Shown here one piece after another: positions 5,772-55,376 of a DNA stretch of 64,000 bases. The DNA is from Lophium mytilinum. Lineage: Eukaryota. Both the position numbers and the translations under genes were made by a program. The notes below the pieces were generated by a model that saw only the letters and a program-made list of their open reading frames with translations, did no database searches and was not told the DNA's origin. The first letter of the stretch is position 1. Every line of letters begins with the position of its first letter. The DNA lies in NCBI GenBank assembly GCA_010093605.1, contig MU004182.1, positions 1,459,032-1,523,031 on the forward strand, given 5' to 3'.

Positions 5772-6344
5772 GGAGCTCCGGCCCCGCGATACGCGATACG
5801 GCAGTCTTCAAGTTGATATTTGCAATTGTTTCCAATCGCACTTTTCTAGAACGAAACCCCGCATGACGTTGCCGGGTCGAAATGCCTATCGCGGCTTCCC
5901 GCATATGGCATCTCCACTTAACAGATTATGGTTCATGCGGAAGGGAAATTGATATGACATACGCGCTTGACACCTGCAATGCCGAAGGGCATTAAAGGAT
6001 TATTGTAAATCTTGCATAGAAGCAAGTACTTTTAAAATCTTCAGGTTTTCATTGTCTACTTCGATCGGAAAATATGAAATAACTCCGTATAGCTATTCCA
6101 GTTAACAATCCGCGTGCTTTGACTGCTACTGCATTGAGTCTTTTCGCACTAGGTATCACGCAGCCATTTTAAGCCGTTTAATTTTACTGTAGGTAGACCA
6201 CCTCCGACAGCGCGGTCTACAGCTGTTTCTGGACCCTTCGTAGACGCCGCCAACTTGCCCCACTATAATTTATTTCCACAACCCCACGTCTCTCAACATC
6301 AACACCATTCCTCCACCTCCCACCACCCTACTAAACCACGCGCC

Positions 6345-7157
6345 ATGGCTCCCAACGATGCGCGTCACGACATGCTCACGAACCCCCCTCCGCCCGACGC
6401 GTCGATCGACCACTCCGCCGCCCTAGACTACTGGAACTCGATCCCCAACACCGTCGACGGCATGCTCGGCGGCTATCCCCACATCACGAAGGTCGATCTA
6501 CAAGGCTCCGCGAACTTCCTCTCCAAGCTCCGCCGCCAGCACCAATACCAGACCTCACCAAACTCCCCCCCCTTACCCGCAGCCGCCACCCCGCAGCTGC
6601 CCCGCGTCGCCGACTGCGGGGCAGGCATCGGGCGCATAACAAAGGGCTTCCTGGTCAACGTTGGCGTGCAGGTGGACGTGGTGGAGCCGGTGAAGAAGTT
6701 CACAGACGAGCTAGTAGCCGCGCCGATACCCCCGCTGTCTGGGAAAGTGGGCGAGGTGGGCGAGGTGTTCAATCTGGGGCTGCAGGACTGGACGCCGGCG
6801 GCGGGCGCGTACAATCTGATTTGGAATCAGTGGTGTGTTGGCCATCTTACGGATGCGCAGCTGGTGGAGTATCTGCGGCGGTGTAGGGAGGGTCTCGCGG
6901 TGCCGCCTGCGGGTGCGGAGGGGAGCGAGAAGCTGGCGGCGTTTCAAGGAGCGTGGATTGTGGTTAAGGAGAACATGAGCACGCATCCGAAGGGGGAGGA
7001 TGATTATGATGAGCTGGATAATAGTGTGACGAGGACGGATGCGAAGTTTAGGAGCTTGTTTAAGGAGGCGGGACTTAAGTTGGTGGCGACGGAGGTGCAG
7101 AAGGGCTTTCCGAAGGTCTTGTGCCCAGTGAGGATATATGCGCTGAAGGCAGAGTAG
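6345..7157 (+). CDS. TAE1: Alpha-N-terminal protein methyltransferase (NTM1/Tae1 family), intronless
   Basis: GMLGGY, DCGAGIGRIT (SAM motif I), IWNQWCVGHLTD, VKEN, DNSVTRT. First ATG at 6345. Confidence 0.93.
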   Translation: MAPNDARHDMLTNPPPPDASIDHSAALDYWNSIPNTVDGMLGGYPHITKVDLQGSANFLSKLRRQHQYQTSPNSPPLPAAATPQLPRVADCGAGIGRITKGFLVNVGVQVDVVEPVKKFTDELVAAPIPPLSGKVGEVGEVFNLGLQDWTPAAGAYNLIWNQWCVGHLTDAQLVEYLRRCREGLAVPPAGAEGSEKLAAFQGAWIVVKENMSTHPKGEDDYDELDNSVTRTDAKFRSLFKEAGLKLVATEVQKGFPKVLCPVRIYALKAE

Positions 7158-7566
7158 GACCCGGGGAGGGAGCTGGCAAGAAACGTGATAGTAGGTGGTG
7201 CATAAAAGGGTGGCAGTAATCAATGATACCCATTAGTAGCTGGATAAGGGCGCCGCTAGTTAGCAGCGCGGAATAGCATAGCGTGACAGTTTGCCCATTT
7301 GTGCAGACGGGTTGAGTACTAATTGTGGTGTTTCGACATCCTTTAGAATTCTGTATATGATTTATTTCTGCCGAGGTTTTGACCGACCCATTCTTTGGTT
7401 GGACCATTCTAGTCGGAGCTCAGGGTCTAACGTCAGCTGAGTCCTTATGAGTCCTTTACTTTCCATTCTCCAATACTAAGCAAACAGTATGCAGATGTAG
7501 GCCGTTCAGCGATCCCGTGTAAATTACGGTTTTGGGTCTTAGGCGTAGGGGGACTGAGCAGTCGAA

Positions 7567-7650
7567 CTGTTTCGCCATTTGTTCTGCCATTTGTTCTGCC
7601 ATTTGTTCTGCCATTTGTTCTGCCATTCGTTCTGCCATTTGTTTTGCCAT
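7567..7650. repeat. 12-bp tandem repeat (TTGTTCTGCCAT) x7
   Basis: Four perfect and three degenerate units read directly, between the convergent 3' ends of TAE1 and MED8. Confidence 0.95.
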
Positions 7651-7770
7651 TATAGAGTGACTTCCAAGTTTACCAGGTCTCGTGGAAGGGTTTGCTTTTG
7701 TGCCTGCTTACACATCTTGGATTCCCCATCAAAATGTCAACCGACTTCACTTCGGCTACCGATGATTCAA

Positions 7771-8694
7771 TCAGCGCATTCCCGCTGGAGCTTGTTGACG
7801 CTTTAACGCAGCCTGCTGGTCTCTCAGATCCTTTGCTCTGTCGACGACTTTCGGGACGGCTCCCGTGCTCATGTACGTCAACACGGTCCCAAGAGGCAGA
7901 CGTGGTGGCTCATTTTCCTTTGCCGGCGCCGCGTCCTTCATTGGCTCATCCTCTTCGTCTTCATCCTCACCCTCGTCGTCCTCATCCTCATCATCTTCGT
8001 CCTCTGCAGTGAAGACCTGCCGTGCAATGTCGTTTTCTGCTGGCCCGGCCCACTCCCAAAGCTCCGACACATCGTACTCATCTAGCCCGCCCTCCTTCTG
8101 GCCGACAGTAGGTCCTTCTCCAAACTCGCCCATTTCGCAGAACTTGCTAGCGTGACCGAGCCCTTCGCTGATCCAGTCTTCCACGTGGGGTTCGAGCTTC
8201 TTTCGTAGAAGTTGGTGGAGTAGGTTGCTTTGGGACTGTCCCGGGAAAGCGGCGAGTGGGTAAGAGTGCATCCTCTGTAGAGCATCGTGATTTGTTGCTG
8301 TCGATTCGAGGAGGAATGTGATGTTCCTAAGGAGAAGCGCAGATGACTTTTGAAGAGATGGCCTGGGATTTTGGTTAGTCGGATTCTTTGCCATCTTTTA
8401 GATTTGGCGGGAGCCTGAAACGCTTTCAAAGCAATGTTTCCTCTAGCCGGATAGGTTGAGAGCATTGAATGAGTTTGAAGTTGATCAAAGAAACAATGTG
8501 ACAGAAAGACAGGAGAGATCATCATAGAATGCCAAAGGTAGCGCAATAGAAAGCAATTACCAGTTAGGAAGAGGCTCATGGTGCATTAGATCCCCCTCAA
8601 TCACTTCTAGTGATTTGACCATCGCAGCTGCGCGATTGCGGGCTACATCTAGGGCTTTCAGGTCCTCAGTCGTCATCGAGGATGTGGACTGCAT
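7771..8694 (-). CDS. MED8: Mediator subunit Med8
   Basis: Exon 1 MQSTSSMTTEDLKALDVARNR...EPLPNW (8694-8561), intron 8560-8363, exon 2 PSLQKS...YPLAAFPG...LLHQLLRKKLEPHVEDWI, then an acidic tract and VLTYMSTG. All are typical of fungal Med8. Confidence 0.88.
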
Positions 8695-9167
8695 GTTGTA
8701 CAACAGAGACTCAGTTCAGAAGAAAGCTCGTAGACGAAAACCAAATCTCCAGAGGTTTCGAGCGCAGGTCTTGGACTGTTGTTTTACGAAGACGCCGATG
8801 TAGGTGGACTGGAGGTGAGTTTCGTGACCCACTTATAAATGATGACTAAACTATGTTTTAGTTTTGGTACTCAGGGTACTTTACAAAACATGTACTGAGA
8901 GGTTAAACCCGTCAAATGACTTCTCAACGCTATCAAATGCTCATCAGTAGTCTTTGCTAAGATACCCAATAAAACAATCAAACTCACACTCGTTTATCAT
9001 ATCTATTGTTCCATCGACGCATTCCAAGCAATTTATATCGGTCAGTGCCAACGGTGAATGCCGAGAAGGTCCGACCTCCCGCAAACACCATCATTTGTCG
9101 CGAGAACGAGCTAAATCTCACATCAACACCATTTATCGTCTTTCCAGTCTTCCAAATACCCACGATT

Positions 9168-36115: not shown

Positions 36116-37609
36116 AGACGTATACCTTACTTCGTCTCATGACAATAGTGCGGTCTTGGAATTAAATAGTGGAAAAGTTGCAATTTATCCGACGGGCAAG
36201 ACACGAAGGGTTAGCACCAGAAATAGAAAGCACGGGGCTGTATCACCCTACGCGTTTGCTGGGAACGTGCCCAACTATACGTCGAAATCTTCCCGATGCG
36301 TCCATGCGCGTCTCCTGATCACCCGTGGGCAAGTGCTCGCTCACTCGCTGCCTTTTCTGAGAGCCGCATCTTCAACCGCCTGCAGCTTTCGTTTCATCAC
36401 TTTTCCTTCAGTCCGCAGCCCTCTCGAGTATCATCTACCCATACTTTGCGAGAAGGTACCAGTTCCTATTGCTGCTGTGCAATGGGGCAACTCAATTCCC
36501 GCAGCCAGGCCCCGCTGGAGGACCCAGCTCTTGGCGGCTCCATTCGCCACATTGAGGAACTACGACTCTTCGAGCTTGGAGACGCTCGATATCTCGCTGT
36601 GCCTCTAGCTCGGGTTAGCCCTGTTCTTTGCTCGAGATGACCAGTCACTCACCTGCTCGTAGACAGTTCAGCTTCCATCCATTGCTGAAACTCCCACTGG
36701 CAAAATTTCTGTGACAGTCGTGTTAACTCCTCAGGGACAAATTCCGAACCAAACTTGGGTCGACAATAACTTCAAGGAGTGGTATGCGTCTGACGATGTC
36801 TTTCACCACGACTTCCTTGCCAACGTGGTGTTCGTCAGCGCGGAGACAGAGCCAGCTGGCCTCACTCAAATGTCTGATCACATGCGCCATACCTGGAATA
36901 CGAGCTGGTGTACCTCAGTTCCTCAGACTTCAGTGGGACCAGAAGTATCATCGGGCCCGTATGTATTTTGGAACGGTCAGCTTTGCAAAGCATACAGACT
37001 CTACGACGATACGAACCAAGCTTTCATCGTAGGGACGAAGCCCAAAACATCTACAGGGTGAGTCGAGTCATCATCTCAGATCATCCTACTGCCCTCGGCC
37101 GCTGACTTTTGGAGCAGTTTTGAGAATCTGCGCGTGAGTGGTGATTTTTACACGACCTTGAGCTTAGCTGTTCCATCACGCATCCCTCAGGATCGCAGCG
37201 CGATGAGACCTCTAGACGGGCTCCGATTTGCAGTCAAAGATGTATTTGAGATCGAAGGACTTCGGACTACTGCAGGATGTCGAGCGTACTACAGCCTCTC
37301 AAAACCCGCATCGAAAACCGCCCCAACCGTACAAAAGCTGATTGACGCCGGTGCCCAATTGATCGGGACGCTGAAACTGGGCTCTCTAATCACGAGAGAA
37401 GAGCCTACTGAGTCGACCGACTACCAGGCACCTTTCAATCCACGGGGAGATGGCTACCAGTCTGCTTGGAGCAGCAGTGGAGGAAGTGGTGCTGCTATTG
37501 CTGCGTACGATTGGCTCGACTTCACGATCAGTACAGATAGTAGGACTCGTAGCTTCACATGAGTTGTGAAATGTATGCTAATTTGGTACTAGCTACGGGA
37601 AGTAGCCGC

Positions 37610-37775
37610 TGTTGGCCCCTACTACGGGTGACGTTCTCTTAGTCAGCATAGGCCCGTGCACGGCAATGCCTTCTTCCCTACACTCTCTATATTAGCTAGT
37701 TATTATCTATACTAATAATATAACTTTCTATATAATACCTATATACTACCTTATAAGCTATATTAAGCCCTTTTA
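37610..37775 (+). repeat. 5' LTR (166 bp)
   Basis: Aligns without gaps to 53424-53589; 33 mismatches by hand count, 32 of them transitions. Confidence 0.96.
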
Positions 37776-37777
37776 TT

Positions 37778-37795
37778 TAGTATCTAATAAGAGGC
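37778..37795 (+). promoter_or_regulatory. Putative tRNA primer-binding site (RIP-mutated)
   Basis: tagtatctaataagaggc lies 2 nt after the 5' LTR and de-RIPs to TGGTGTCCGATGAGAGGC, the TGG-start, 18-nt form expected of a PBS. Confidence 0.6.
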
Positions 37796-38329
37796 TTCTC
37801 TAGCTTAATCTAGAGGTTTAAAATTCTAATACCTAAGAGAAGAAAGTTCTATAGTTTACTTAAGAGAGTTCTTAATACTATTAGAGTAAGAATTACTATT
37901 CTATAGTTTACCTTACTAATTAGATATTAATAAGGGTAATAGTTAATATTTAAGAGAGTTTTTAGACTAGTACTACTACTAACTTTAGAGAGAGCTCTCT
38001 AGTTAACCTTACTAGAAGAATCTAGGTAAGTTATTACTATAAAATAAAAGCTTATAATATCTAATAAATTTAAGTAAATATATAGTATCTATTAATAAAT
38101 AAATAAATTAACTTATACTTTCTAGTATCTAAGTTAGAAATAAAATACCCCTCTAAAAAAAGAAAGGTAACTCTCTATATTCTAGGTAGATTATTAGTAA
38201 CTAGAAGACGCCTTACTACTAAGTTAACTAACTATTAACTATAGAACTAATAATATAGAATTTAGAGAGCTACTATTTATAGTAAGCTTACTATCTACCT
38301 CTTCTTCTTATAGATAGCCGCCTAAGTAC

Positions 38330-41250
38330 TATCTATTAGAGTACTAGCTTAATAAGGCGGATAAATTAGAAATTTTAGAATATATTAGTTATAGTAGGAA
38401 ACTTATAGATAAACCTATAGAAACTACTAGAGCTAGAATTATAGTTCTATAAAAGAATAATTTAGCTAAGATAGATAAGTCTATACTCTTTTCCCTTATA
38501 CTACCTAAACTATTTATCTTAATTCTAGAATAACCTAATACTATAATATTAAATAAGTTATTAGAGACTAAGTAAATTAATTTATCTATACTTAACCTTT
38601 CTAATAAAACTAAAACTATACTTAATCTATCTTCTACTTTAGATATTAATAACTATATAGTTAATATTAGCGGCTTAATAAAGGTATTCTATAACTAGAG
38701 TACTCTAAAGCTAGAAGAGCTAGCTCTACTAATACTACTAATAGTTAAGGTAACTACTTTATTATCTACTACTTCTATTACTTCTATAGAAGCTATTATA
38801 GTAATAGTAACTCTATTTCTCTTAATAGATAGTATATTACCTATCCCGCCTTTCTATAGTAAACTTAGAGAGAATCTAGCCTAGTTTCTCTACTATATAA
38901 GGCTCTATATTAGGCTAATATTAAAGTAATATAAAAATAAGAAAGATAAGAAAGAGCTATATCTAATAGATTTAATTAGCTATCTAGAAGGGAAGGTAAA
39001 GAAATATTATAATATAGTAAAGAGTAAAGCTAAAAGAAATTACTCTCTATTAGTTACTTTATTAGAGGAATAGATAAATATATAGTATAATAATAGCGCA
39101 GTTATAAAAGCTATTAAAGAGTTCTAGCAGCTCTTTTAAGGAGACTATACTATAGAAAAGTATATTAAATATACCTAAAAGATCTATAATATATTATTAC
39201 TAGTATTAGAAATATCTATCTTAGTAGTAAAAAGAATAGTAAAGAAGGTAAAATTAGAAAGAATTTATAGTATTGCGGGCCTAATATTATTATTAAGACT
39301 AACCTTTAACTTTAATAAAGCGGCGAAAGTATTACTCTTTTATAATATAAATAGTATTATTATAAGTCTTAATACTACTTAATTCTAACCCTTATTAATA
39401 AGTGTAGAGATTCTAAGAACTAAGAATAATTAGATATTCCTTATAATAGAGTTCTTAACTAAAGTAGTATAGTATCTTAGTACTATTAGGCCTCTATAGT
39501 TAATATTAGATCTAATTCTAGCGCTAAAGCTAATAGTAACTTATCTACTCTAAAACGCCTATCTATTCTAGAACTAATACTATAGTAAGTAAGACTAGAA
39601 AGCTCCCCTATTTACTACTACTATTAATAAGATACTAGCTAATCTAGAGGGATATATCTACTATAAGTACTATAAGGGTAGCTGTTTTAAATCTAACTAC
39701 TTTTATACTACTTTTAGTCTAGAGGAATATATATAATAAAAGAAGGTCTATAACTTAGGGCGTAAGGTAGCTAGTATTTTATAAAACTAAGGTTATAAGC
39801 CTTAAGTTATTATAGTAGCCTAACTTAAACTTTTAAATATAAATAATAGTAAAGATAATTTACTATAGGTATATATTTAGTCTATTAGCACCTAAGGTTC
39901 TAGAGTTAAAAAAGTAGTTAGGTATATCCTATAGTTATAACTAAGTAATAAGAGTAAAGAAAAGAGTAAGACTTCCTAATACTCTACTAAAGAGGAATTA
40001 TCTAGCAATAAATTATTAATAGCTAATATTATAGTAAATAAAAATAATAAGAGAGTAAGAGTTAAAGTAGACTTATTAACTAATTATAATAATAACTATC
40101 TAACTACTAAAGCTACTAAAAATATAAGATTATAAGTACTCTCTTTAAGAAAGTATACTATACCCTTCTAGTTTTAGATACTTTTTAAGAAGTTCTCTAT
40201 AGCTTCTACCGCTACTAATACTATAGTAGAAAAGGATAAGGTGTCTAAAACTACTAGTTATAAGTTAAAGTATAGTTCTTAGCTAGCTAAGTTTTACTAT
40301 ATCCGCGGTATAGAGAACGCCCCTCTCTTTAACCCTATTAAGGCTATGCTATAGAGGAAAATTAAGGCTAAAAATAATATTTAATAGGGTTACCTCTTAG
40401 ACTACTCTCTAAGGCTTACTAGAATAATTATATAAGCTTTAGTTTATCCCTCTAGTAAGTTAAAAGTAAAGTTATTATAACCTATAGTTAATATAAAACC
40501 TATTAAGGTTTCTTCTATCTCTATTAAAAAAGTTTTAGTATCTAGTAAAATTAAAAACTTCTATACTAAGGGTAGTATTTAACTTAAGTACTCTTTATCT
40601 TATAGAAAGAAATACTCTCTTAATTTTATTCTTCTAGATAGCGCCTCTAAGATAAACTTAATTAATTCTATAACTATAGACTAATTAAAGCTTACTTACT
40701 TACTATAGTAGCCTATAGAGATCTTAGTTACTAATAGTAGAATATATATTATTATAGATTTTATTAAGATAGACCTTACTATTACTAGCGTTTAAAGAAT
40801 TATTAACGCTTAGGTTATTAAAGGAAAGACTAACTATACTATACTTCTAGAATACTTATACCTATACTCTATAGTAGCGGAAGAAAGTTATTAAGACTAA
40901 GTAGTAACTTTTCTTAAAGTAGATAGAACCTGCGTACTAGTCCCCCGGGTTAATTATAAAATAGGTAAACTTATTAATAGTAGCTAAGTAAAGCCTTCTA
41001 GTAACTAAAAAGATAACTTTAACTATAACTCTAGATTAAAGGCTAATTCTAAAGCTAAGGTAGTAGACTAAGGGAACTATTTTATAAAATAAGCGTCTAG
41101 AAAGGCTCTATCTAACTCTAATAATACTAAGGAATTATTCTAGTTAGAAAAAGAGTTATATTACTAGATCTACTAAAGTCTAGCGGTAAATAGACTTATC
41201 TAGTTAACCTATATTTATTTAAAGTTAGTTATAATAAATTACTAAGTTAA
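38330..41250 (+). pseudogene. gag-protease ORF of the LTR element (RIP-destroyed; ends approximate)
   Basis: A single frame carries PIPPF(H)(G)K(P)(G)EN(P)A(Q)FL at ~38840-38890, a C-x2-C-x4-x-x4-C knuckle spacing at 39659-39700, and the aspartyl protease motif ILLDSAS(E)INLI at ~40628-40663. Confidence 0.8.
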
Positions 41251-41369
41251 GAAGAGATAGATAGATTATAGTTAATAAAGTTTAAGATATAAGCTAGAGA
41301 TATAAGGGCGTAAAGGGCCGCTTAGATTAGAGTTTCTAGTATTATTTAGAAACTTAAAGCTAAGGGCGC

Positions 41370-43170
41370 TACTATATACTAGAAAAGAAAATAACTATAG
41401 TAGATAGACTATCTAGAATTCTTAAACCTTTAAGTTCTACTACTTACTTTAATAACTTAGTTAAGGCCTTTACTTAGACTACTACTAATGCTAATACTAA
41501 CGGTAGCACTAATAATATAGAATCTAGCTATTCTATTAAAAAGAATTCTTAGTATATCTAGACCTATAATTCTAATTATAGTTCTATAGTATTCTACCTA
41601 TTAGATAGGGAAGTTTCTTTACCTAATAACTTTCTAGGTTACTATTCTTAGGCTATAATCTATTAAATTAAGTAATAAGTAATATATTACTAACTAGTTA
41701 AGTCTATAGAAGAAGGAATAATAACTTATTATTTAGCTTATATTAAAAGGAGTAGAAAGCTAAGCTATTATATTAGAGCTATTAATATACTAAAAGTACT
41801 TTAAGAGTTATATAATATTTATAGTTACTTTACTAATTAAATAGTTTTAAAGGTTACTATTAGAAAGTACTATTAGCCTATAAGGCACGCTAATATTATC
41901 TACTTCTACTAGTCCTGCTATAATTATTAAATATTAGGGCCGCTATAGGTAATATCCCTTTTACTATCTATCTTAGAACTGCAACCTTTAGACCTAATTA
42001 GTATAGATTTTCTAGAATCTATTTCTCTAGTTAGTAATAATAGAATAAAGTATATCTTAATTATAGTAGACTACTTTTTATACTATATCTAGGTAGTTAT
42101 AATACTATAAGTATAATCTTACTAAGTCTAGAACTTTATTAAAGGTTAAATTATTAAAGTTTTTAGCTTTTCTTATTCTATATACTTAGATAATAGTATA
42201 TAATTTACTAGAGGGGAGTTCCCTAGAGAGATAAAGAAAAATAGCGTTACTATACTATACGCCCCTTCTAGTTATTCTAGCTTAGTTAGTTTAGTAGAAG
42301 TATATATTAAGCTTATTAGAAAAGGGCTCTAAGCTAAACTTTAGAAAGATCTATTCTAGATTTACTAATAGAATAAACTTCTTCTAGAAATTACTTACGC
42401 TATAAATACCTAAGTACTCTATTTCTAAGAATTTACCCCGGCTTAACTTCTCTTTAGGTTTAATCTAAGGTTTAAGAATAATCCTATATTAATTAAGAAT
42501 AAACTATAGTTAACTACTATTTAATTAAATCTAATAGAGGATAGAAATAATTTTTTAGTAGTAGAAGCTCTATAGTTTAAGGCTAGACTAGCTAAAATTA
42601 ATAAAATGCAGTTATAAGTAATAATAAAGATGCTAAGAGCGTAATAAAACTTAGTAGAGAAGGCTAATTCTAAGTAGGTTTCTCTAGAGGTAGATAACCT
42701 TATTCTACTATACTAATACTTTCTTAATACTTAGAAAGAAAGAAAGTTAGAACTAAGATAGACGGGCCTATATAAGGTTTAATACTTTATAAATAATAAG
42801 AGCTTTATATTCCTCTAGAATATCTATACTAGTACTATTATTAGATAATACTACTTAGATAATCTTAAAATCTATCTCTCTTAGAATAATAGATTAAAAG
42901 AAGATTATATCTAAGTAATTAATAAATCTTATAAGATAGATACTACTTAGGCGGATATACTACCTCTACTAGATAATAAGAATCTTAATACTAAGGCGGA
43001 GTTAAAGGAGAAGGATATCTAGACCTTTAAGGCCCTGCTTAAAGGCAACTTATTTAAAGAGTAAGAATATAAATAGCTAAAAAACCTAGTAAATTACCTA
43101 GGCTAAGACGCGGATAAACCCCTTCTATTATACTAGATTTATTAAAAAGTAAATCTCTTTTAAATATAGA
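41370..43170 (+). pseudogene. RNase H C-terminal remnant plus gypsy-type integrase (RIP-destroyed; ends approximate)
   Basis: One frame carries (H)(V)(P)(G)K..(A)(V)(A)D(G)LSR at 41373-41417, (H)(D)I(H)(G)(H)F...YY(W)P...C..(C) zinc domain at ~41810-41930, (G)(M)DF, VDYF, (S)DN(G), (G)L(A)E and (W)TG(P)YKV (GPY/F) at ~42758-42780. Confidence 0.88.
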
Positions 43171-46100
43171 TCTAATAGAAATTACTTATAAGAAATATAT
43201 TTCTATATAGTAATTAAAGGAAATAGTAGTAGGGAGAAACTATAAGTATACTAGGTATTATTAGATTAATTATTCTTATTAATTTTATACTTATAGTTAT
43301 AGTAATAGCATTTAGGTATTAAAGAAATATATTTTACTTAGAGAGAGACTGTAATATTAACTGTAAAACGGATAATAGTTTATTAAGAATATTAACTTAG
43401 TTATTAGAGATATTAACTGTAGGGTAAATAATAGTTAATAATAAGTTAGTATAAATAAAGTCTAAGATTAGTAGACCATAATATAGCTTATAAAATATCT
43501 CTCTTTAACCTCTATATAATATATAGTAATAGTAGATATAAGAGTATATAAAAGATATTAAGTATATTCTTCTTTTCTAATTATATAGCTATAGAGGTTA
43601 ATAACTATTATTAAAAGTATAGTTAATATCTTTATTATATATATAAGAATATTATTCTTATACTTATAGCGCTCTCCCTTCTTTTCTAGGCGGGAGCATA
43701 GTTATAGCTCTTAAGTAGAATAATAGTAGTTATATATAACTATTAAGTAATACTATAGATAATATTATTATTAAATAGTAACCTTATTAAATAAGGCGAA
43801 TACTATAAATAACCCTATATTATTTAATTATAGAGAATAGATAAGTAGTATTTAAATTAACTTTAGTAATACTTCTTAAGTTTATCTCTTTTAATTAGAT
43901 ATTTAATACTATCTACTCTCTCTTTAGTTTCTTTATAGTCTATAGTAAATAGATATTCTCTTAAATTACTAGTTCTCTATTATACGCTCTATATTATACT
44001 AAAAGCTTAGCGCCTACTTTAGAGTAATATAACTATCTTACTAATCTATAGAGGCGGTAACTACTAAAATCTATATACCTTACTCTACCTCTTAGACTTC
44101 TAAGCTTTAATAACTTCTTAATTTAGACCTTCTTTCTTAACTCTTACTCTATTTAGGCTATCTTTGCGCCCTAGTTATAACTAATTAAGCCTTAGATTAG
44201 TAAGAGATTATAGATTTAAGTCTAAAGTTTATTAGAATCTAGTTAAAATTACTCTTACTTCTCTAACGCCTACTAGGTTAATCTCTACTATAGAAGTCTA
44301 GACGCTCTAATTTTACTTCTTACTATTTTAGTAATATTTACTCCTCTAGTATAGAGAAGATAAATATTAGTAATACTATAGATAACGCTGCTATAAGTAA
44401 TAGTTCTTAAGAGAAGGGCCTTAAAGAGAATAGAAAACCTCTATAATTTATCTTTAGAGGAGATATTAGTATACTTATAGTTAATTATTATATTAAGTAT
44501 AAGAATCTACTATTTCTATTTATAGACCTATTATAATTAATACTAAAATCTATAGTTACTAAGATACGCCTATCCCCTCTACGCGCTTTACCTGCTAAGA
44601 AAGAGTTAGAATTAAAGGAACTTAAGCTAATTAGTAGTCTAGAAACTAGCTATATTCTTACTAAGAGTTCTAATATTAATAAAGCTATTCTAGAAACTAT
44701 AGAAAGTACTTTATCTTTAGAATATACTACTTCTAGAAAGAAGTAAAAGGTTACTCTTAAATAAGCTATACCTATATATAGCGCAGTAAAGAGAAAGGTT
44801 TCTTTTAGTACTTAAGCTAGAAAGCTATCTAGTATTACTCTAAGTAGGGTTAAGTTTTTAAAGAAGTACTTAAATATATTTACTACTCTAAAGATTATAA
44901 AAAAGGTAGCTTTAACTTTAAAGAAGTCTACCTTCTTAACTAAGACTATTAACTATAATGCGGTCTAAATACTTAAAGCTATTAAGTTTAATCTCTTAGA
45001 GTAACTACTAGATTTAGTTATTAATTAGCTAAATCTAAATAAGAAAAGAAAATCTTCTATACTAAAGCCCTATATATATATAGCTTAAAAAGCTTCTAAA
45101 GCTTCTATTACTAAGGCTAGTACTAGTTCTACTATCTTAAACTCTATTTCTTAGTCTATACTAATTAAGAAGGCTAATAAGAAAGCTTCCCCGCTATTTA
45201 AGAAAGAGGAGGACGCTAATAATAAGAATATAATAGATATAAGGCCTAATTTTTCTTATAGCCTAGGTACACTCTTTATATATCTAGGTTAAGATATTAG
45301 TATAGCTATAGTTAACTTTCTAGAAGCTTAGTACTTTAATAGCCCTAATATAGTAATAGAAAAGGTTATAGTAAAGCTAGAACTAGATAGAAATATAGTT
45401 AAGAATTCTAGAAAGTTTTAGAAAGAGGCTTTTTCTACTTTTAAGGTAGTACTTCTATTTAAAGTTTAATAAGCTATTACCTACCTCTTAGCTATTACTA
45501 GAAATAACGTTAATATAATAAGGAAAATAGCAAAGAAGGGCTAGGCGGGTTAGATAAAGAAGAACTTAAGTACTTATAGACCTAGAATAGATATATATTT
45601 TACTACTTAGAGTAATTTCTAGAAGTCTAGCAGTCTTTATAGTTATAGCTAGAAAGTATTAGAAATTAGTTAAGATCTCTTTAATACCTTATAGAATAAT
45701 ACTAAGTTCTATACTACTACTAAGTCTAAGGCTTCTTTTATAGTTACTACTTCTAGAGCTTATATAGAATAAGATTCTTATATTATCTAGTAGAATTAGA
45801 ATAAGAATAGATTAATAACTTATAATTTAATCTTTAAGAAGAGCTTTAACCCCTTATATTTAGTATAGATTAATTTAATATTTTATAAGTATACTATTCT
45901 ATATACTATTAAAGATAGAGCTATTACTCTAGAGTAGTTAGAACTTACTAAGCTAGGTAAGGTCTAGAAGTAACTTAATATAGTAGCTAAGAGTATTAGT
46001 TAGTAATAAGTTAATATAGAGAATATTATGCTTAAGGCCTAAAATACTAAGATAGCTAAATATAAGCTTCTTAACTATTAGATCTCTACTTAGGTAAAGA

Positions 46101-46984
46101 TTATTTCTTAGCTAGTATTATTATTATTATTATTATTAAATTCTATTACGCTAGTATAGCTCCTATTAGAGTTTATATAGCTATTCTATCTAGGCTAATT
46201 TATAAGGGGAAACTATTTACTACTAGATAGTATTTAGGTAAAAACTTTATCCTCTATTATATCTAGTAATAGGCGCCCTTCTTCTTTATATTTTACTATA
46301 GGGGATATATAGTAGGTCTATAAGAACTACTATAGAATAAGCTATTAAAATATATCTTTCTATATCTATTCTAGAAGGTTTATTATTATTCTTCTAGGTT
46401 TAGGCTAAGTAGAATCTAGATATAAGGCTAGTATAGAATTAGCGTAAGGGCCCGCGTATAAGTAGTATACTTATAGGGCCTTTATTTAAGGTAATAAGGT
46501 AAAATAAATAGTAGCTATATAGGCTATTAGAGATAGAAAAGCTATATAGTATATAGATAGTATATAGTAGAGATATATAGAAAGTATATAGTTTATAAAT
46601 AGGCTATAAGAGTAGAAGAGCTATAAGTAGCTATATAGAGTTTATAGCTATAGTAGTATATATAAGCCTCTATAGTATAGCTAATAGCTATAAAAGGGCT
46701 AAAAGTATAGAGTATATAGTTTATAGTCTATAATTAGAAAGTATATAGCTATTTATAGTAAGTATAAGTTCTTATAGTATAACTAACTAATAGTAAAAGA
46801 AAGAAAGCCGCGTATATATACTATTATAAAGTAGATAGGCTATTTAGAAATAGAAGAGCTATAAGAGATAGAAAGTATATAGAAAGTATATATTATAGAG
46901 TATATAGTAGAGACCTAAAGCTAACTATCTATACTAAGTACTAGTTAAAAGAGGGCGCTAAGGCCTACTATAGTATAATTAGGG

Positions 46985-47110
46985 GGTAATAGTAAGGCTA
47001 TAGATAATAGTAAGGCTATTAGTAGTAGTAAGGCTATTAGTTATAGTAAGGCTATAGGTAATAGTAAGGCTATTATTTATAGTAAGGCTATAGGTAATAG
47101 TAGGGCTATA
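46985..47110. repeat. 18-bp tandem repeat x7 (consensus ggtaatagtaaggctata) near the LINE ORF2 end/3' UTR
   Basis: Seven consecutive 18-bp units read directly. Confidence 0.9.
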
Positions 47111-47129
47111 GTATTAAGTAGAAGGGCTA

Positions 47130-50100
47130 GATCTACTCCCTTTCTATTTCTCTTACTATTAAGAGGTAGGGTAGTAGGTCTATTCTCTATAGAAACTATT
47201 TAGCTACTATCTTAGGTTTTTTTTTACTTTTATATATTTTCTTATATATCTAAGTTTTTACTTTTTTAAATAGTTTACCTTTACTCTTTATATGCCTCTT
47301 ATAGTTTATTACTATATAGTATAGTAATTAGAGGCTATACCTATAGAGGTAGGCTAGTATTAGATAGCCTAGTATCTATATATAGTATAGGTATCTATTA
47401 AGCCCTATATACTCTATTTATAGGTTTATAAAAATAGTACTTTTAACCTTTATAAGCCCTTTATATATAGTCTTCTATTATTTACTCTATTTAGTATTAA
47501 GGGCTAGCGTTAGTAGCCTATACTATTCTATTTTATAAAAGAACTTCTATACCTTCTTCTACCTTTCTTTATATTTATATTTAATTATAAATTACCTTAA
47601 GTACTTATAGGCTTTATTTAATTTATCTTTATATCTAGTATATAACCTTATAGCCTTTACTATAAGATTATAAAGTATATTATAGCAGCTAGAGCTATAC
47701 TTTAGCCTTATAAATAGTCTATAGTAGGTATAGATTTCCCTATATATATTACTATATACTATTTTAATATACTAGCGTACTAGCCCTTTATATATATAGT
47801 CCGCGTAAGCTACTATAAATTTCTCTAGTTTTAGCTAGAGTAGTAAGTATAATATTTTATATTCTAGTACTATAGTACTTATAGTCTTATATACTTCTAA
47901 AATTCTCTAGAGGTATTAGTTCTAGGCTATTTTAAGCTACTTAATCTTTATTTTACTAAGCTACTCTAGTATACCTAATATAGTATACTAGGTAGTATAT
48001 CTATATATAATAGTAGGCTAGACTACTACTAAGTATATAAGGCGTACTTTTCTAAAGCTAGCGCCCTAAGTAGATACTATAAGCTATATAAGTACCCCTA
48101 TCTAGGTTATAGCTTTATTCTTTATAATACTAATATATAGGCCCTATTTAAGCTTTAAGTCTATCTATATTTCTAGTACTTTTAGATCTATTATAGGGCC
48201 CTCTATAAAGCCTTATATATTAACTATAGCTTTTAGATTAACTTCTTTATAGGCTCTTATAAAGTATATTAGATAATATTTATCTAGTATAAATACTATA
48301 CTATACTTTCTTACCTATTCTATACATCTATTATAGGCTCTTTTAATAGCTTTATAGTTTACCTCTATAGTTCTACTATATATAAGAATATTTATATTAT
48401 TTATAAACCTATAGGCTATTATATTACTATTCTAGAGGGTTAGTAGTAGTATACTAGTAAAGAAGAAAAAGAGAATAGATAATAAGAAGAAGCTCTATAG
48501 AATACCTATAGTAACTATAATTAGTTCTACTATATAGTTTTCTATAAAGAGTCTAGTTATATAGTCTTATAGAAAGAACCTAGTAAATCTTATTATCTAC
48601 TTTAGTATACTCTAGACCTATAGATTATATATTATTTATTTATATAAGACTTAGTTAAATACTTCTAATATATCTAGGCTAAGAAGTAATACTATAAGCT
48701 ATAGGTTTTCTTTCTATATAGTATAGATTTATTCTATAAGAAGTTTAAGTACTATCTATATAAAGCGTTCTAGCTATACCCCTATTTAGCTAGGTAGTAG
48801 TATACTCTTTTTCTCTACTATTTTAGAGAGCCTTTTAGCTATAATATATTTAAATAGCTTACCTATTATTTCTAGTAGTATAATAGGCCTATAGGCCTTT
48901 ACTATTATATAGAATACTTTCTAGAGTTTATATAGAACTACTATAATTAATTCTTTAAAGGGGTAGAGATAGTATTCTCTATATAGGTACTTTATAAAGA
49001 AGTAAGTAAGTACTAGTACTAGTTATATCTTATACTTCTTTAAGAATCTATTTATAATTTCTATAATTCTAGAGGCCTTATCTAGCGTAATTTCTATTAG
49101 TACTAAGAGTATATTTTTTATAGTAACTTCTATAGAAGTAGTATATAGTTTTAGGTATTAGAACTCTTCTAAGTTAGATAGGTTAGCTTCTACTAGTAGT
49201 AGAAAGAACTATTTAGTAAGTATATATACTTTTATCTTATTATCTATATATAGGGTAGAGTTACCTAGCTAAAAGAGAGGGGGAAATTAAAGAGGGGGCC
49301 TTAATTTCTTTCTAACTATATAGCTCTATTTAGCTAGTTTCTATATATCTTTAGAGTTATTTATTACTTTCTCTACTATATAGTACTATGCCTTAGTACT
49401 CTCTTTCTATATAGCTCTTTTTTTATAGTTATATTAAACTTAGTATAAGATTTAGTTCTTTATAGAGTATAATAAGCGCTATATTCTATATACTTGCCTA
49501 GCTTATATACCTTTTCTAAGTACTTCTTAGTCTAGAATAGTAATATATATTATAAGGGCCGTATAATTAGTACTATAGTATTAATAGTAATTTTAATAAG
49601 TTAGTAGAGAATATATATAAAGTTATCTAGGTTTTCTTTTTCTTTATTATCTAGGGGGTTATTCTAGTTTTCTAGCTTAAGTAGTTAGGCTATAAGGTGC
49701 TTCTATATATTCTTTTATATAATATTCTTCTATAGCTAGTATAGAGGCTATTTAGTTACTAGTAGTAGTATAATATTAAATTCTATATATATAGGGCGGT
49801 AGTCTAAGTAATAGTTCTACTTCTCTTAAACTATATAGAATATTATATATTATATTAGCTATCTAGATATAAATATAAGGTTAATTATAGTCTACTATAT
49901 TTTTCTTATTTATATTTCTATACCCTTCTCTATAGCTAGAGTTAGGCCTACTTCTATTATAATATAAATAAGCTTCTTAGCTTACTCTTCTATACTAACT
50001 ATTTATATTTCTCTCTAGAATAGGTAGTATAGGTTTATATTACCTATAAGTATATACTCTACCTTTTTATATAGTATAGAGAGTAGTATAGCTATAATTC

Positions 50101-50445
50101 TATATAGCTTTAGATTATAGATATTATAAATTTAAATATTCTCTCCTCTAGCCTAGAGAAAGAGAGTAATAAGGTCTAGTAAGTAGTACTCTATAGTCTA
50201 TTAGCCTAGATTTAGGCACTTATTAATATATATATATATTCTAGTATTTAGACTTTCTCTATATAGTAGGTAGTATAATTTTATATATAGTAAGGTATAT
50301 TTCTAGATATTCTTCTATAGTTTTTATATAGCTAGCACTAATAGTTAGGGCTAGGCTGCCTTTACCTTCTTAAGAAACTCTTTTTAGGTTTCTTAGCTCT
50401 TATTAATATTATACTATATAATAGTAAGTATATTAGGTTACTCTA
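47130..50445 (-). pseudogene. LINE ORF2: APE endonuclease, reverse transcriptase, C-terminal CCHC (ends approximate)
   Basis: De-RIPped motifs in order: QYNINKS and AIQEPW (~50420-50310), GDMNLHHPFW (~50040), SDHRPI (~49800), KAYRPI.LLE (~48890), LDISGAFD (~48670), GIPQGSPLSPILF (~48500), GFVDD (~48400), LGIWIDSKLKW (~48160), CPCG...H....C (~47350-47300). Confidence 0.92.
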
Positions 50446-52306
50446 ATATTAGGTATCTATAGAGTCTTTAGGGTTATTTATTATAGCCTAGCTAGCCTTA
50501 GTATAGAGCTAATAGCTTACTACCTCTTCTTTCTAGGTAGATAGTACCTAAGTTATATTAAATTATAATAGTCTAGTATTATTACTATAGGTTATTATCT
50601 AAGAGTAGTATAGTATTTTATAGGTAGGCTATAGAGTTTTATAGAAAGGCTACGGGCTATTATAGTAAGGCTATAGGTTATTATAGTTAGACTACTATAT
50701 TAAATAGAAAGTATATATTAATTAGGTAGTCTATATAGTATAGATAGACTATAGTACTTTATTTATCTTTAGTTATTTTAGGTTTTTATACGCGGTAAAT
50801 ATAGTAGATATAGAGGGGCGTTCTACTCTTTTTAGAGTACTACTATCTAGTATATTACTATTCTTAGTAGCCTTTCTCTTTCTACTTACTATATTAAGAG
50901 CTTATAATTCTATTATAGATTAGAATATTACTATACCCGGCGTACTATTAGTATTATTATTAGGGCTATTATTAGCCCTATAGTAGGTTAGCGCTATCTA
51001 CCTCTTTATATTAGCTTTTAGTTAAGTATTTTTTCTTATAGTGCACGCTATACTATATAATAGGTAGCTTCTCTTATAGTTAGTATACTTTTTAATACTT
51101 TTCTCTATGTATTATCTTATATTATAAGCTTCTACGCACGCTATATATACTGCCTTCTTCTTATAGTATTTAGTAATATATTTATAGCCCTAGTATTAGA
51201 AGTATTAGGTAGCTATAAAGCCTACCTTATACTTTATAGCCTCTAGTATATATTTATTCTATACTAAACTACTATCTATAATTTTATTTACTATTACCTC
51301 TATATCTATAGTAACTATAGCTAATAAGGCGCGCTATTTAAAGTTATTTCTAATAGCCTAGATTTAATTTAGGTGCTTCTATATAATTTTATATATAGCT
51401 AGGCCTAGATATAGTACCTTATTATCTTATATAATACTACTTTATAGTATTAGGTTCTCTAAGTCTATTTCTTTAGGTACTCTATATACCTTTAGAAGGA
51501 CCTTAGGTAGTTAGATTTATACTATTTTACCTAGAACCTTTATCTATTTCTTCTTCTTTAATAGGGCTTTCTTAGTAGTTATATCTAGTATATAGACCTT
51601 TATATCTTTACTCTAGAGCTTTCTAATACTATAGATCTTTATTATATTAGGCTCTTCTACTACTTAGAGCTTATAGATAATAGTTATATTTAAGTCCTTA
51701 TTTATTGCAGTGCGTTTCTTTTTATCTTTAATATATATAGTAATTTTATAGATAGTCTATATTATATACTCTCTATTTTCTATAGTCTTACTATTTCTTT
51801 CTACTACTACTACTACTATATAGGTTATTTCTTATATAGATAGCGCCTATATACTCTTTTATATTTTCTCTATTATTTTTATTATCTTTCTCTATAGTAT
51901 TTATTATAGGTCCTCTATAGTACCTAAGAGGCTAGCTAGTATACGCCTAGTAAAGTTCTAGAGGTACTTAAGAGTATTATTTATCTTAGGGTTAAAGAAT
52001 ATAGGCTTATTCTATAGAGAGTTCTATATACTATAGGCTTCTTTAATAAGTACTTAGACATTAGTATAGATATTCTACTTAGTCTTTAGTTAGTAGGTTT
52101 AGTTTTAGAATTATTATTAGTATTATTAGTAGTATTATTATTATTATTATTATTATTAATAATACTATATAATAGAGGTTATAATATATAATTCTACTAT
52201 AATACTACTAGTATAGCTTATAGAGCTCTAATACTATATATAAATATTTATAGAGCCTTAAGTAGCTTCTAAAGGCCCTTTTTAGGTTATATTTCTAAGG
52301 TGCTAT
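50440..52306 (-). pseudogene. LINE ORF1 (gag-like, triple zinc knuckle; ends approximate)
   Basis: At ~51210-51020 de-RIPs to QCF.CQGY.HI.K.C - C.AC..AH....C - C.NC...H......C, the triple-knuckle arrangement of Tad1-clade ORF1. Confidence 0.88.
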
Positions 52307-53423
52307 AAATTTAATTATATTATATTTCTTTCTCTTAGCTAGTATTCTAAGTCTTAGAGTTTTAGAAGTTTATTAATAATTAAGGCTTAACTAAGAAGAT
52401 AATAGAGATATCTTAGCTTACTAGAGAGGTTACTATTATCTTAGCTAAGCTAATCTAAGCTAAGATCTTTTAGGAAATCTATAAGTTCTAAGGTAATTCT
52501 AGGCCCTTTTAGCTCTTTAATACTTATAAGAAGCTACTATATAACTTTAACTTTATAGATTATCTTACTAAGTCTACTAAGGCTATAGAATACTCTATTA
52601 CTTCTAGTACTAGTAGATCTTAGATAGAGACTAATAAGAATAGCTCTTCTTTTTCTCTTACTTAGCTCTAGAGAGATGTCTATTAGTTAGCTATTAAAGA
52701 AAGGGATTTCCTTAATAAGTTAGAGACTAATAATTTAGATTAGAAAGATAAAAAGAATACTAAATATTATTATATCTATAGGTAACTTAAGACTAGATAT
52801 TTTATTTAGCTTAGAACTTATTCTATTTAGAGTCTTATAGATTCTTAGATCTATTTTAAGATAGTTTCTTCTTTTAAATAGTAGCTTTTCTAGTAAATTA
52901 TCTCTAGAATATTCTTTTAAACTACTATAGATTCTAATTAACTACTTAGATCTAGAACTATTATTAAAATTATAGGTAATATCTTAAGATTTATAAACTC
53001 TTCCCGGTAGTTTAATACTTATTAGATTACTTTTTATTTTTAGGCTAAGAGAGTTTCTCTAACCCTTTAGTTTTACTATAATTATTTCTTTTCTTAGCTA
53101 GAAGGTAAACCTATAGGTTCTATATAAATAGTATATATTATTAACTATTACTAATTAATATTATAGGTTCTATAGATAATATCTTAATATTTCTCTACTT
53201 ATATAGATAGGTTCTCTTTTATTATTATAGCTAGGGGTTATAGAGTTTAGGTAAAAGTTATTTTATTAAGAGATTTTAGGTATAGGCTTTATAGTTTATA
53301 TAATTTATTAGCGTAGATATTTTTCTTCTTATTCTTCTCTTTTTCTTTTCTATTTTATAGGCTTAAGAATATTCTTTTAGTAGGCATTTAACTATATATT
53401 AAATAAGGTTTTTATAGAAGAAA

Positions 53424-53589
53424 TATTAGCCCCTACTATAGGTAACATTCTCTTAGTTAGTATAGGCCTGTGCACGGCGATGCCTTCTTCCCTGCACTCT
53501 TAGCATTAGCTAGTTATTACCTACACCAATAATACGACTTTCTATACAACACCCGTGCACTGCCTTGTGAGCTACATCGAGCCCTTTCA
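53424..53589 (+). repeat. 3' LTR (166 bp), preceded by a short purine tract agaagaaa (53416-53423)
   Basis: Direct repeat of 37610-37775, ends in CA and is followed by TSD CCGC. Confidence 0.96.
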
Positions 53590-55376
53590 CCGCCGACCGG
53601 CTCTAGCCAATGGGTGCTTTGGACTCCGCGTGTCTAGTGATGCGCTTCCCTCTGAAGGCATCGTTCCATCTTGGTCGTGAGTATTTGTCAGGAATCTCTC
53701 CTATCGAATTGATGGTGTTGCCTAATGCGTATAGTTACTTCGACTCTCCGGCTCTCTATGGTAGAGACTTTTTGAAATTCGAGACTATCATCTGCACATG
53801 GATCAGCCTCGAGAAACAGACAGTGACTGAGGTTCGTATCTCGAAATGTTTCGCAGATCTAATCATCTAACGGCTCGCAGCTCCCCGTATCCCTTCTGTA
53901 TTTGAGCGACTTCTTACCTATCAAAAACGAAGTCCAGATGAAACTCATCGACGACTTTATTGCGAATGTTGAGTCGGCCTACAACATCAAAACCGAGAAA
54001 TTGTCCATTGCGGAGAAATGGAAAGCGACCAAGCCCGCTAATGTCGATGTGGTATCTATTCAAGAATATCTTCAGGATGTAGGAACCTTTCCCCAATCTC
54101 CCTTACTCTGCCAGTCCATTTTCGCTCATCAAAGCCAGGTTGGAGTCAACTCGTTCTGCTATGGGGTCTACCACGAGCTTGACTGGTTTTGGAATGAGTA
54201 CCAAGAGAAGTTTGACAAAGCTCCCTATGTCAATCCCGTCATGCAATGGAGATGGTGCGTTACCTGCTCGCTATCTGCACGGTTTGCTAAGGCCAAACAC
54301 AGGAAAGCCGCAGAAGATATTACGAAAGCACAGTACGACGACGCGGTAAATCGACTGCGTATTTACAAAGACTGGTTTCTTCAGGAGGTTATGCAGGTTG
54401 GGAAGCGTAACACCCTGATTGTATTACCCATAACATCCCAGGAGGTTGACTATAGGGATGTACCACCTGGGTAACTATGCTTCCCTTCGCTCATACCACT
54501 GCTAACACATGAAAAGACCGCCCACTGCACCGAATGCCTTTGATGGAATCTGGTTGGCACCGACGCTTGGCGCCCCAGAAGTATCTATCCCGAGTTTGTT
54601 TATCCAATCCATCCATTCATTTCATTACAGCTAAAAGTTCGAAGTTGGCGAAATGGAATATCACTCACGAGTGAGCGGGCGACAAGAACATCTACCTATA
54701 GTCGTCTCACTACTGGGTATTCCGGGTACGTGTTCGCATCAAAACTTCCAACGCCTTTGCTTACATTTGTCCTATAGGTTCGGACTTGAGTTTGCTCAAG
54801 ACGGTGCGCAAAGTGCTTGAGCACTCTGGGCGACCTCTTTCGGTCAAGGCTGGCTCGCGCATGTGGTAGGCTTCTGCCAATACTGGCAGCAAGTTGGGTC
54901 TGCGCTTGCGTGGATGAGAGTCACGACATAATGAGCAAGGAGCTTTGAAGTGGATCAGGATGCCAGCCTTACTTGTCTGCCAAAGTACTCGAGCTATCCG
55001 AATGACTCATTGTGGTACGCAAGTGCTCGCACCTCCATGCTCTTCCTCCGCCTTTCAGCCTGAGTGATCCTCAGTTGCAGACCGAATTTGAGAACTTCCA
55101 GACGAATTGCGAGCACGTCGACTAGGTTTATAGTGGAAGGCGCACAAACTAGGTGATTCTGTCCTTGACTTCCAAGTCTGTCCGCCTAGTTTACTCATCA
55201 TTATGCCCTGCTAATATCCTTATCACGTCTCTCTGAATCAGCACTGGAACCAACGCGGAATCGTTGATTTTACGACGCAATCAGGAAGATTTTGTAGCTT
55301 CTAGAGACCACGAAGACTTTCGAAATAAGATGAACGTTCTCCAAGATCATCAGGTTCATATCAATCAACACGGTAC

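Follow-up and report, generated by a model that had tools for sequence, protein, structure and literature searches.

Organization of the locus

The stretch of DNA considered here (the window) corresponds to 64,000 nucleotides of the Lophium mytilinum genome (NCBI GenBank assembly GCA_010093605.1, contig MU004182.1, positions 1,459,032 to 1,523,031 of the forward strand); positions given below are counted from its first base. Within the window lies an AT-rich block, with a GC content of 0.24-0.30 over 38001-54000, as compared to 0.48-0.58 in the rest of the window, that is made up of one long terminal repeat (LTR) retrotransposon of 15,980 bp. It was previously proposed, based on inspection of the sequence, that this element carries an extra open reading frame (ORF) of some 870 codons between its integrase gene and its 3' LTR, a long interspersed nuclear element (LINE) having split that frame. 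In the analysis reported here, the part of that frame found on the plus strand at 44342-46000 was well supported as coding, and the full 874-codon frame proved to be largely a mirror-frame illusion. The features of the element and the basis of each assignment are listed below, with RIP standing for repeat-induced point mutation, R/Y for purine/pyrimidine and RT for reverse transcriptase.

37606..37609, no strand: left target-site duplication (CCGC), in an amidase exon; identical CCGC on both sides
37610..37775, plus strand: 5' LTR, 166 bp, TG...CA before RIP, inner half most RIPped; match to the 3' LTR
38201..41150, plus strand: gag-protease relic, codon start 2 mod 3; fewest stops among six frames, R/Y score of +0.071 bits per codon
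41700..43250, plus strand: integrase relic, codon start 0 mod 3, with gypsy-type zinc finger and DDE core; RIP-aware motif scans and by-eye reading
43300..44341, no strand: signal-free spacer after integrase; six-frame R/Y scores of -20.4 to -1.7 bits over 300 codons
44342..46000, plus strand: relic of a putative accessory ORF in sense orientation, 553 codons, 31 RIP-type stops; R/Y score, strand log-odds and stop counts
46104..46119, no strand: left LINE target-site duplication, TTTCTTAGCTAGTATT
46120..52330, minus strand: high-copy LINE; contig depth, RT motifs, tail and target duplication
52331..52346, no strand: right LINE target-site duplication, TCTCTTAGCTAGTATT
52347..53150, minus strand: candidate antisense ORF relic (about 267 codons), otherwise non-coding DNA; stops and R/Y score
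53151..53423, plus strand: terminal part of the interior on the 3' side, where a short run of purines, AGAAGAAA, adjoins the LTR
53424..53589, plus strand: 3' LTR, nearly un-RIPped; match to the 5' LTR
53590..53593, no strand: right target-site duplication (CCGC); identical CCGC on both sides

The two LTRs, each of 166 bp, are identical at 133 of 166 positions, with the differences between them comprising 32 transitions and one transversion. Their termini read TG...CA (TGTTGG...TTTCA), and the element is bracketed by a 4-bp target-site duplication, CCGC. With its direct LTRs, TG...CA ends and short target duplication, the carrier is an LTR retrotransposon, probably of the Ty3/gypsy type. When the flanking sequences were joined without the element, ATGSSRRPALANGCFGLRVSSDALPSEG was obtained, corresponding to one amidase-like frame. 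Because the joined flanks restore this reading frame, it was concluded that the element inserted into a host gene. The interrupted amidase-like gene occupies window positions 37062-37609 and 53594-54474, with the break falling within a GGSS/RxPA...G..G.KPT-type stretch. Two bases past the 5' LTR (37776-37800), the sequence TAGTATC was noted; this differs by one transition from TGGTATC, with which the primer binding site for initiator tRNA-Met commonly begins in LTR elements, such that TAGTATC is a candidate for that site here.

The extent of RIP was described by the index (CpA+TpG)/(ApC+GpT). The interior of the element, the extra region included, is RIP-saturated throughout (0.00-0.09), with values of 0.53 being obtained for the 5' LTR (37611-37774), 0.86 for the 3' LTR (53425-53588) and 1.12-1.14 for the flanks. 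As the amidase flanks are thus un-RIPped, it was the insertion, and not RIP, that inactivated the gene. Spill-over of RIP is confined to the inner half of either LTR, with mutated sites gathering toward the 3' end of the 5' LTR and the 5' end of the 3' LTR (22 vs. 10 sites); this amounts to a direct measure of some 100 bp at this locus, and RIP ends within about 100-170 bp at the LTRs. Because leakage of RIP is so short and the 3' LTR and flanks were spared, the extra 3.9 kb that separates integrase from the 3' LTR must itself have been duplicated DNA.

Coding potential of the region between integrase and the 3' LTR

As the changes caused by RIP are confined to transitions, codons keep their purine/pyrimidine pattern through it. 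Frame and strand were accordingly scored with an R/Y model comprising eight purine/pyrimidine codon classes, trained on 25 un-RIPped host ORFs from the same window (9648 codons). This model chose the true frame in all three coding controls, namely, gag-protease, integrase and LINE RT. In true-sense windows of 400 codons, the sense minus antisense difference averaged +26.2 for host sequences (n=14) and +34.2 for transposable elements (n=29), and none of 77 true-sense windows of 250 codons fell below -4.3. With four control stretches of non-coding DNA taken within the same RIPped block, the best of six frames scored between -1.7 and +11.1 bits, the maximum coming from the LINE 3' untranslated region (UTR). 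Each region was also compared to 500 dinucleotide shuffles. A second, independent test relied on codon log-odds of the sequence as it stands, sense vs. in-register antisense, cross-validated on four known genes; here, control windows of 260 codons yielded a mean of +35.6 (sd 15.5; minimum +0.8), with none of 50 being negative. Finally, stop codons were calibrated in known sense frames (mean 7.4 per 100 codons, with 14 or more in one of 92 windows) and in the in-register antisense frames (mean 10.8, with five or fewer in one of 92 windows).

Over 44201-45400, the plus frame scored +40.5 R/Y bits, with a sense minus in-register antisense difference of +42.3; none of the 500 shuffles reached +40.5, the highest attaining 12.1. 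Likewise, the strand log-odds for 44342-45600 came to +105.3 over 419 codons, relative to a control mean of +55.8 (sd 13.0), with a further +15.7 over 45601-46119. The cumulative coding score turns upward at 44327-44351, matching the start given in the original prediction, and the ORF ends at three consecutive stops, TAG TAA TAA (46001-46009). The stops within it are all TAA or TAG, as expected from RIP of CAA, CAG or TGG. Given 31 such stops in 553 codons, the frame is at best a relic. The Lys/Ser/Glu-rich character claimed for the N-terminal part was recovered in 44342-45600 (K 14%, S 10%, E 4%). No RT motif is compatible with 44342-46000. For this reason, and given the gypsy-type integrase, the possibility that the sense ORF is the RT of a copia-order element was rejected. 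No similarity of the sense ORF to gag-pol or to the LINE was found.

Once 46120-52346 (6227 bp, 2 mod 3) is excised, integrase and the 3' LTR are separated by 3898 bp. Upon such excision, the phase-continuous plus frame that had been described is indeed present, comprising 874 codons (44342-53190; codon start 2 mod 3 on the left), with the left frame running into that frame which holds the previously noted motif LLRSRTIIKIIGNILRF...FYFxAKRV, from 52942. As stated, too, ORF finders miss the frame, with open stretches in it reaching 69 codons at most. The distribution of stops nonetheless changes along it; as far as 46000, the 553 plus-frame codons include 31 stops (5.6%), and the 321 that follow include 40 (12.5%), as opposed to 55 in 553 (9.9%) and then 17 in 321 (5.3%) in the in-register antisense frame. 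In successive 100-codon windows, the plus frame contains 7, 3, 5, 3, 10 and 8 stops up to 46000, followed by 15, 7, 14 and 8. Read from 53124 across the LINE site, the minus frame contains 4, 5 and 5 stops per 100 codons, followed by 9, 5, 8, 15 and 17.

Over 52347-53150, the minus frame presents 13 stops in 267 codons, vs. 29 in the plus frame, and continues in phase across the excised LINE site into 46119 to about 46000. For 52347-53200, R/Y scores of -2.0 bits on the plus strand and +23.4 bits on the minus strand were obtained, yielding a difference of -25.4. None of 500 shuffles reached +23.4 (maximum 18.5), a value that lies within the range of gag windows (9.6-27.2). The strand log-odds for 52347-53124 was -8.1, and the cumulative plus-frame score drops after 52753, in the region of the motif noted above. 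From 53200 to 53588, the coding signal was absent by R/Y codon score. Continuation of the plus frame past the LINE was, therefore, rejected, which leaves two possibilities for the right part, namely, a minus-strand ORF relic of weak bias or non-coding DNA. Of the single codon-biased frame of about 870 codons, then, roughly two thirds (44342-46000) stood, and the remainder, where both strand tests fail, did not. With it fell the notion of a globular C-terminal half, as the plus-frame coding tests failed there and the minus sense looks better if anything, and the hint of an oligonucleotide-binding (OB)-fold/single-stranded DNA-binding (SSB) domain at 52940-53060, which sits in a frame failing the coding tests over 52347-53200. 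The illusion arises because RNY-like codons (purine, any base, pyrimidine) look open on both strands. Purine/pyrimidine codon statistics can recover frame and strand in RIPped DNA and reveal mirror-frame illusions of this sort.

The gag-pol region of the carrier

In the gag-protease relic, a protease-like stretch, ILLDSAS...ILLEYLYLY, can be read by eye at about 40640-40900. Upstream of the protease (38201-40600), some 800 coding-like codons were seen, about twice the usual length of gag, with scores of 9.6-27.2 bits per 284 codons; the element may hold extra coding sequence on its 5' side, too. The best frame switches from 2 mod 3 to 0 mod 3 near 41200-41450, with the second frame being best over about 41450-43250. 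The integrase is found downstream of the protease-like stretch and is last in order, as in gypsy elements. In RIP-aware scans, its zinc finger appeared at 41868 as YY*PIRHANIIYFY*SCYNY*, with asterisks denoting stops (2 mismatches in 21 positions; one match vs. 0.8 expected), and stretches containing DDE residues appeared at 42057 (LIIVDYFLY; one match vs. 0.2 expected) and 42180 (IYLDNSI*F). At the C-terminus, a GP..V...AY.L.LP...IH.VFHVS-like stretch was recognized by eye.

For gypsy RT and RNase H, six of seven motifs had no RIP-compatible exact match in any frame, and the seventh, a short motif, had two matches on the minus strand, corresponding to chance level. The best candidate with one mismatch was YFNNLVK at 41445. 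The protease-like motif lies only about 470 codons, including a frame change, ahead of the DDE core of the integrase, and because this span is so short, some 0.6 kb of pol is seemingly missing (40900-41750). In the spacer that follows the integrase (43300-44341), the plus frame contains 12-17 stops per 100 codons.

The nested LINE

The original prediction had removed a LINE and one target-site duplication from the region, and this was borne out by a jump in depth, a 16-bp repeat, a (TAA)n tail and minus-strand RT motifs. Depth was determined from the contigs of two source runs, with the figures given here being those of run X1. Contig depth amounted to 5750-9079 over 46152-52168, as compared to 131-162 over 37400-46151 and 52716-53800, such that the LINE is present at 44-69 times the single-copy depth; unique contigs break off at 46107 and begin again at 52290. 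The insert is flanked by a 16-bp direct repeat, T(T/C)TCTTAGCTAGTATT, and when the boundary windows were shuffled 200 times, such repeats were encountered at a mean of 0.0. The RT motifs YRPIILL and RFINN, the latter being xFADD-compatible, lie 161 codons apart on the minus strand. Given the RT motifs, tail, target duplication and many copies, the insert is a non-LTR (LINE) retrotransposon. Its parts, all on the minus strand, are as follows.

46120-46139, minus strand: (TAA)n 3' tail; the (ATT)n plus-strand run adjoins the left duplication
46968-47129, minus strand: 18-bp tandem repeat of the 3' UTR, TAGTAAGGCTATAGGTAA-like, at least 7 copies, just downstream of ORF2
About 50500-47200, minus strand: ORF2 with RT; YRPIILL at 48893, RFINN at 48410
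52000-50800, minus strand: ORF1-like frame; frame -2, +36.4 bits over 50800-52000
52099-52170, minus strand: (AAT)n run in the 5' coding part, poly-Asn on the minus strand

Runs of (ATT)n occur at both ends of the LINE (46113-46139 and 52099-52170), and assembler contigs break at both. The possibility that 52347-53200 is ORF1 of the LINE was rejected, given its single-copy depth and the LINE target duplication at 52331-52346.

Homology and structure searches

When nine read-through frame translations, with X at stops, were compared to Pfam, no family was detected at E values up to 1, including RVT_1, rve and Integrase_H2C2. Because RIP erased detectable similarity, this result is no argument against membership of the carrier in the gypsy group. 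Of the 7999 candidates scored in a word search of 5.8 billion proteins with the integrase region, none had an E value as low as 0.01, while phmmer comparison of the 553-codon ORF to 1.84 billion representative proteins gave no matches. In the PDB, only chance matches were obtained, with the integrase query matching Rrp40 (E 0.75-1.3) and no integrase, and the sense ORF matching a thiol peroxidase (E 0.8-1.4). In a metagenome scan, none of 593 pattern matches was confirmed. AlphaFold2 returned a mean confidence (pLDDT) of 36.6 for the sense ORF and 39.3 for the integrase control. Since the element's own integrase, although recognizable by eye, was equally invisible, the silence of these searches carries no weight. 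More generally, even an integrase goes unrecognized by Pfam, the PDB, large protein searches and AlphaFold2 when its DNA is RIP-saturated.

Origin of the extra coding sequence

The reading tentatively favored here, to which a probability of about 0.45 is assigned, is that the region contains the relic of accessory coding sequence belonging to the element itself, namely, a sense ORF, perhaps together with a convergent antisense ORF. The sense ORF, of about 550 codons (44342-46000), would have been the element's own cargo, carried between integrase and the 3' LTR. A possible convergent antisense ORF of about 270-310 codons would have run from 53150 down to about 46000, later being split by the LINE. 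By analogy with other LTR elements, the sense ORF could have been expressed from the LTR-driven transcript in spliced or subgenomic form, and the antisense ORF might have been driven by an internal promoter near the 3' LTR. The products may have been nucleic-acid-binding or regulatory accessory proteins serving replication of the element, rather than envelope proteins. Today, the locus is inactive, given the 31 in-frame stops, the split by the LINE and a pol too short for a full RT-RNase H. The earlier proposal of an accessory gene following the integrase is thus retained for some 550 codons, on the strength of the coding statistics, and abandoned for a single protein of about 870 codons.

Several points weigh against this reading. 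How the ORFs were expressed and what they did is purely inferred. Neither an intact copy nor a related one was found, conservation being the decisive criterion for an accessory ORF. The evidence for coding is statistical only, with both models sharing RNY symmetry, and over 45401-46119, the R/Y scores are tied (13.9 bits on the plus strand vs. 13.5 bits on the minus strand). A signal-free spacer of 1 kb separates the integrase from the sense ORF, and a nested transposon with degraded ends would look identical. For the right part, the log-odds of -8.1 lies far from the value of about -36 predicted for typical minus-sense genes, the frequency of G at the second codon position is 0.19 on the minus strand vs. 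0.09-0.11 in known sense frames, and the residual G/C pattern is closer to that of the left plus frame than to that of typical minus-sense genes. It is possible, therefore, that this stretch is non-coding DNA rather than an antisense ORF. As for additional copies, neither the extra region nor gag-pol had a second copy at 80% or more in the contigs, unlike the LINE, with contigs being able to show presence but not absence. Small excesses in depth over the unique parts, reaching +30 at most where the baseline is 131, were ascribed to AT-rich DNA aligning by chance, as was a joint of 39208 to 45365, with only 21 letters on one side; neither was considered to reflect another copy.

Some probability, smaller than that assigned above, attaches to the coding-like stretches being not cargo but one or two unrelated nested transposons or retroelement genes that inserted before the LINE. 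PIF/Harbinger elements are two-gene DNA transposons, and the presence of two opposite-sense coding-like stretches end to end within 3.4 kb fits such an arrangement. The signal-free 1 kb after the integrase would also be understood in this manner, nesting is evident at the locus in the form of the LINE, and saturated RIP suits any repeat equally. However, none of six RIP-tolerant inverted-repeat pairs found frames the region at a plausible spacing, and no third LTR copy was found. Five Harbinger transposase motifs had no RIP-compatible match in 43300-46119 or 52347-53424, which is weak evidence; elsewhere, two short motifs had two matches each, corresponding to chance level. Nor does extra contig depth indicate a multi-copy family, unlike for the LINE, and the region shows no similarity to the LINE or to gag-pol. 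Taken together, this evidence against a nested element is weak, as the ends may have eroded.

It is very unlikely that a single sense ORF of about 870 codons (44342-53190), with a globular and possibly OB-fold C-terminal half, was once present. Such an ORF would explain why phase is kept after the 6227-bp excision. Moreover, under the as-is model, which draws on the element's own genes, the plus frame comes out ahead of the other five as far as about 52976, if only by +0.01 to +0.08 bits per codon; in the right part, residual C at the second codon position (0.19) is like that in the left half (0.20); and the window 52528-52827 contains only 7 stops per 100 codons. Yet, the last 321 codons, with 12.5% stops, include windows with 15 and 14 stops, levels of 14 or more being seen in one of 92 sense controls. 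The R/Y difference of -25.4 lies far from the true-sense windows, none of 77 of which fell below -4.3, and the log-odds of -8.1 is similarly placed relative to 50 true-sense windows, none of which fell below +0.8. The triple stop at 46001-46009 and a cumulative score that declines after 52753 also argue against one long ORF. Least likely of all is that nothing was ever encoded here, in which case the low-stop frames and codon scores would simply follow from the composition that RIP gives to non-coding DNA, for instance to a long 3' UTR. RIP does distort composition, the LINE 3' UTR control reaches +11.1 bits and no homologue was found in any search. Still, the +40.5 bits and +105 log-odds of the left part exceed the gag controls, no shuffle of 500 came near, and missing homologues are uninformative when the integrase control is equally invisible.

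A broader proposal, which must be regarded as improbable though ahead of the two readings just considered, is that the element represents an old ascomycete Ty3/gypsy lineage bearing a two-gene accessory cassette in the env position, which would pair a sense ORF (about 550 codons) with a convergent antisense ORF (about 300 codons), both without relatives among known proteins. If true, the cassette would be a fungal counterpart of the sense and antisense additional ORFs (aORFs) of plant elements, combined in one element, and intact relatives of the cassette may persist in genomes without RIP.

Comparison with known accessory ORFs

The antisense gene brtn, which serves below as the fungal point of comparison, was reportedly first presented by Zhao et al. 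in 2011 (Virology 417:248). In plant Ty3/gypsy elements, aORFs between pol and the 3' LTR may be sense and env-like (Athila/Tat-type) or antisense (Grande, RIRE2, Retand), and the fungal element Boty of Botrytis and Sclerotinia, whose brtn lies as an antisense gene between pol and the 3' LTR, is given as a non-plant case (PMC7264820). Other papers likewise place brtn in BcGypsy1 and mention further "additional ORFs" in other Botrytis elements (PMC8365987), or describe a Boty-like element as gag-pol plus brtn (PMC4227169). With extra ORFs between pol and the 3' LTR thus already being known, including in the fungal gypsy element Boty, the suggestion that the region represents an undescribed system does not hold as far as its kind is concerned. 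In a literature search that was not exhaustive, no sense extra ORF in a fungal gypsy element was encountered beyond the unnamed Botrytis "additional ORFs" (PMC8365987).

Nested LINEs in RIPped AT-rich blocks of ascomycetes present the same combination as seen here, namely, a high-copy LINE with target duplication and (TAA)n tail in an older LTR host element, a RIP-saturated block and spared flanks, although this pattern accounts only for the split of the ORF and not for its identity. With plant aORFs, the extra sequence shares its position after integrase and before the 3' LTR, a length of hundreds of codons, a sense and/or antisense orientation and lack of similarity to known proteins. It differs in that plant aORFs are by definition conserved across copies, whereas here, the copy, killed by RIP and a LINE, is found in a fungal host; transmembrane and signal features are, moreover, unreadable in the RIPped sequence. 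Boty is likewise a fungal Ty3/gypsy element with an extra gene, and the antisense position of brtn matches that of the possible minus-strand ORF. By contrast, the better-supported ORF in the present element is sense, and the pol of Boty is described as complete in the citing papers (gag, zinc finger, protease, RT, integrase, chromo), whereas the pol considered here is truncated.

Positioned between pol and the 3' LTR, scoring as coding and distinct from gag-pol, 44342-46000 lies where an accessory ORF is expected. The feature is, on the reading favored here, a dead relic of a known kind, namely, an LTR-retrotransposon accessory ORF, in a host group for which few have been described. Extra genes of LTR retrotransposons are the raw material for retroviral env and accessory genes, and are barely described in fungi, with brtn of Boty being the sole case that turned up in the literature surveyed. 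Intact relatives of the sense ORF, if existing, would provide a testable fungal case.

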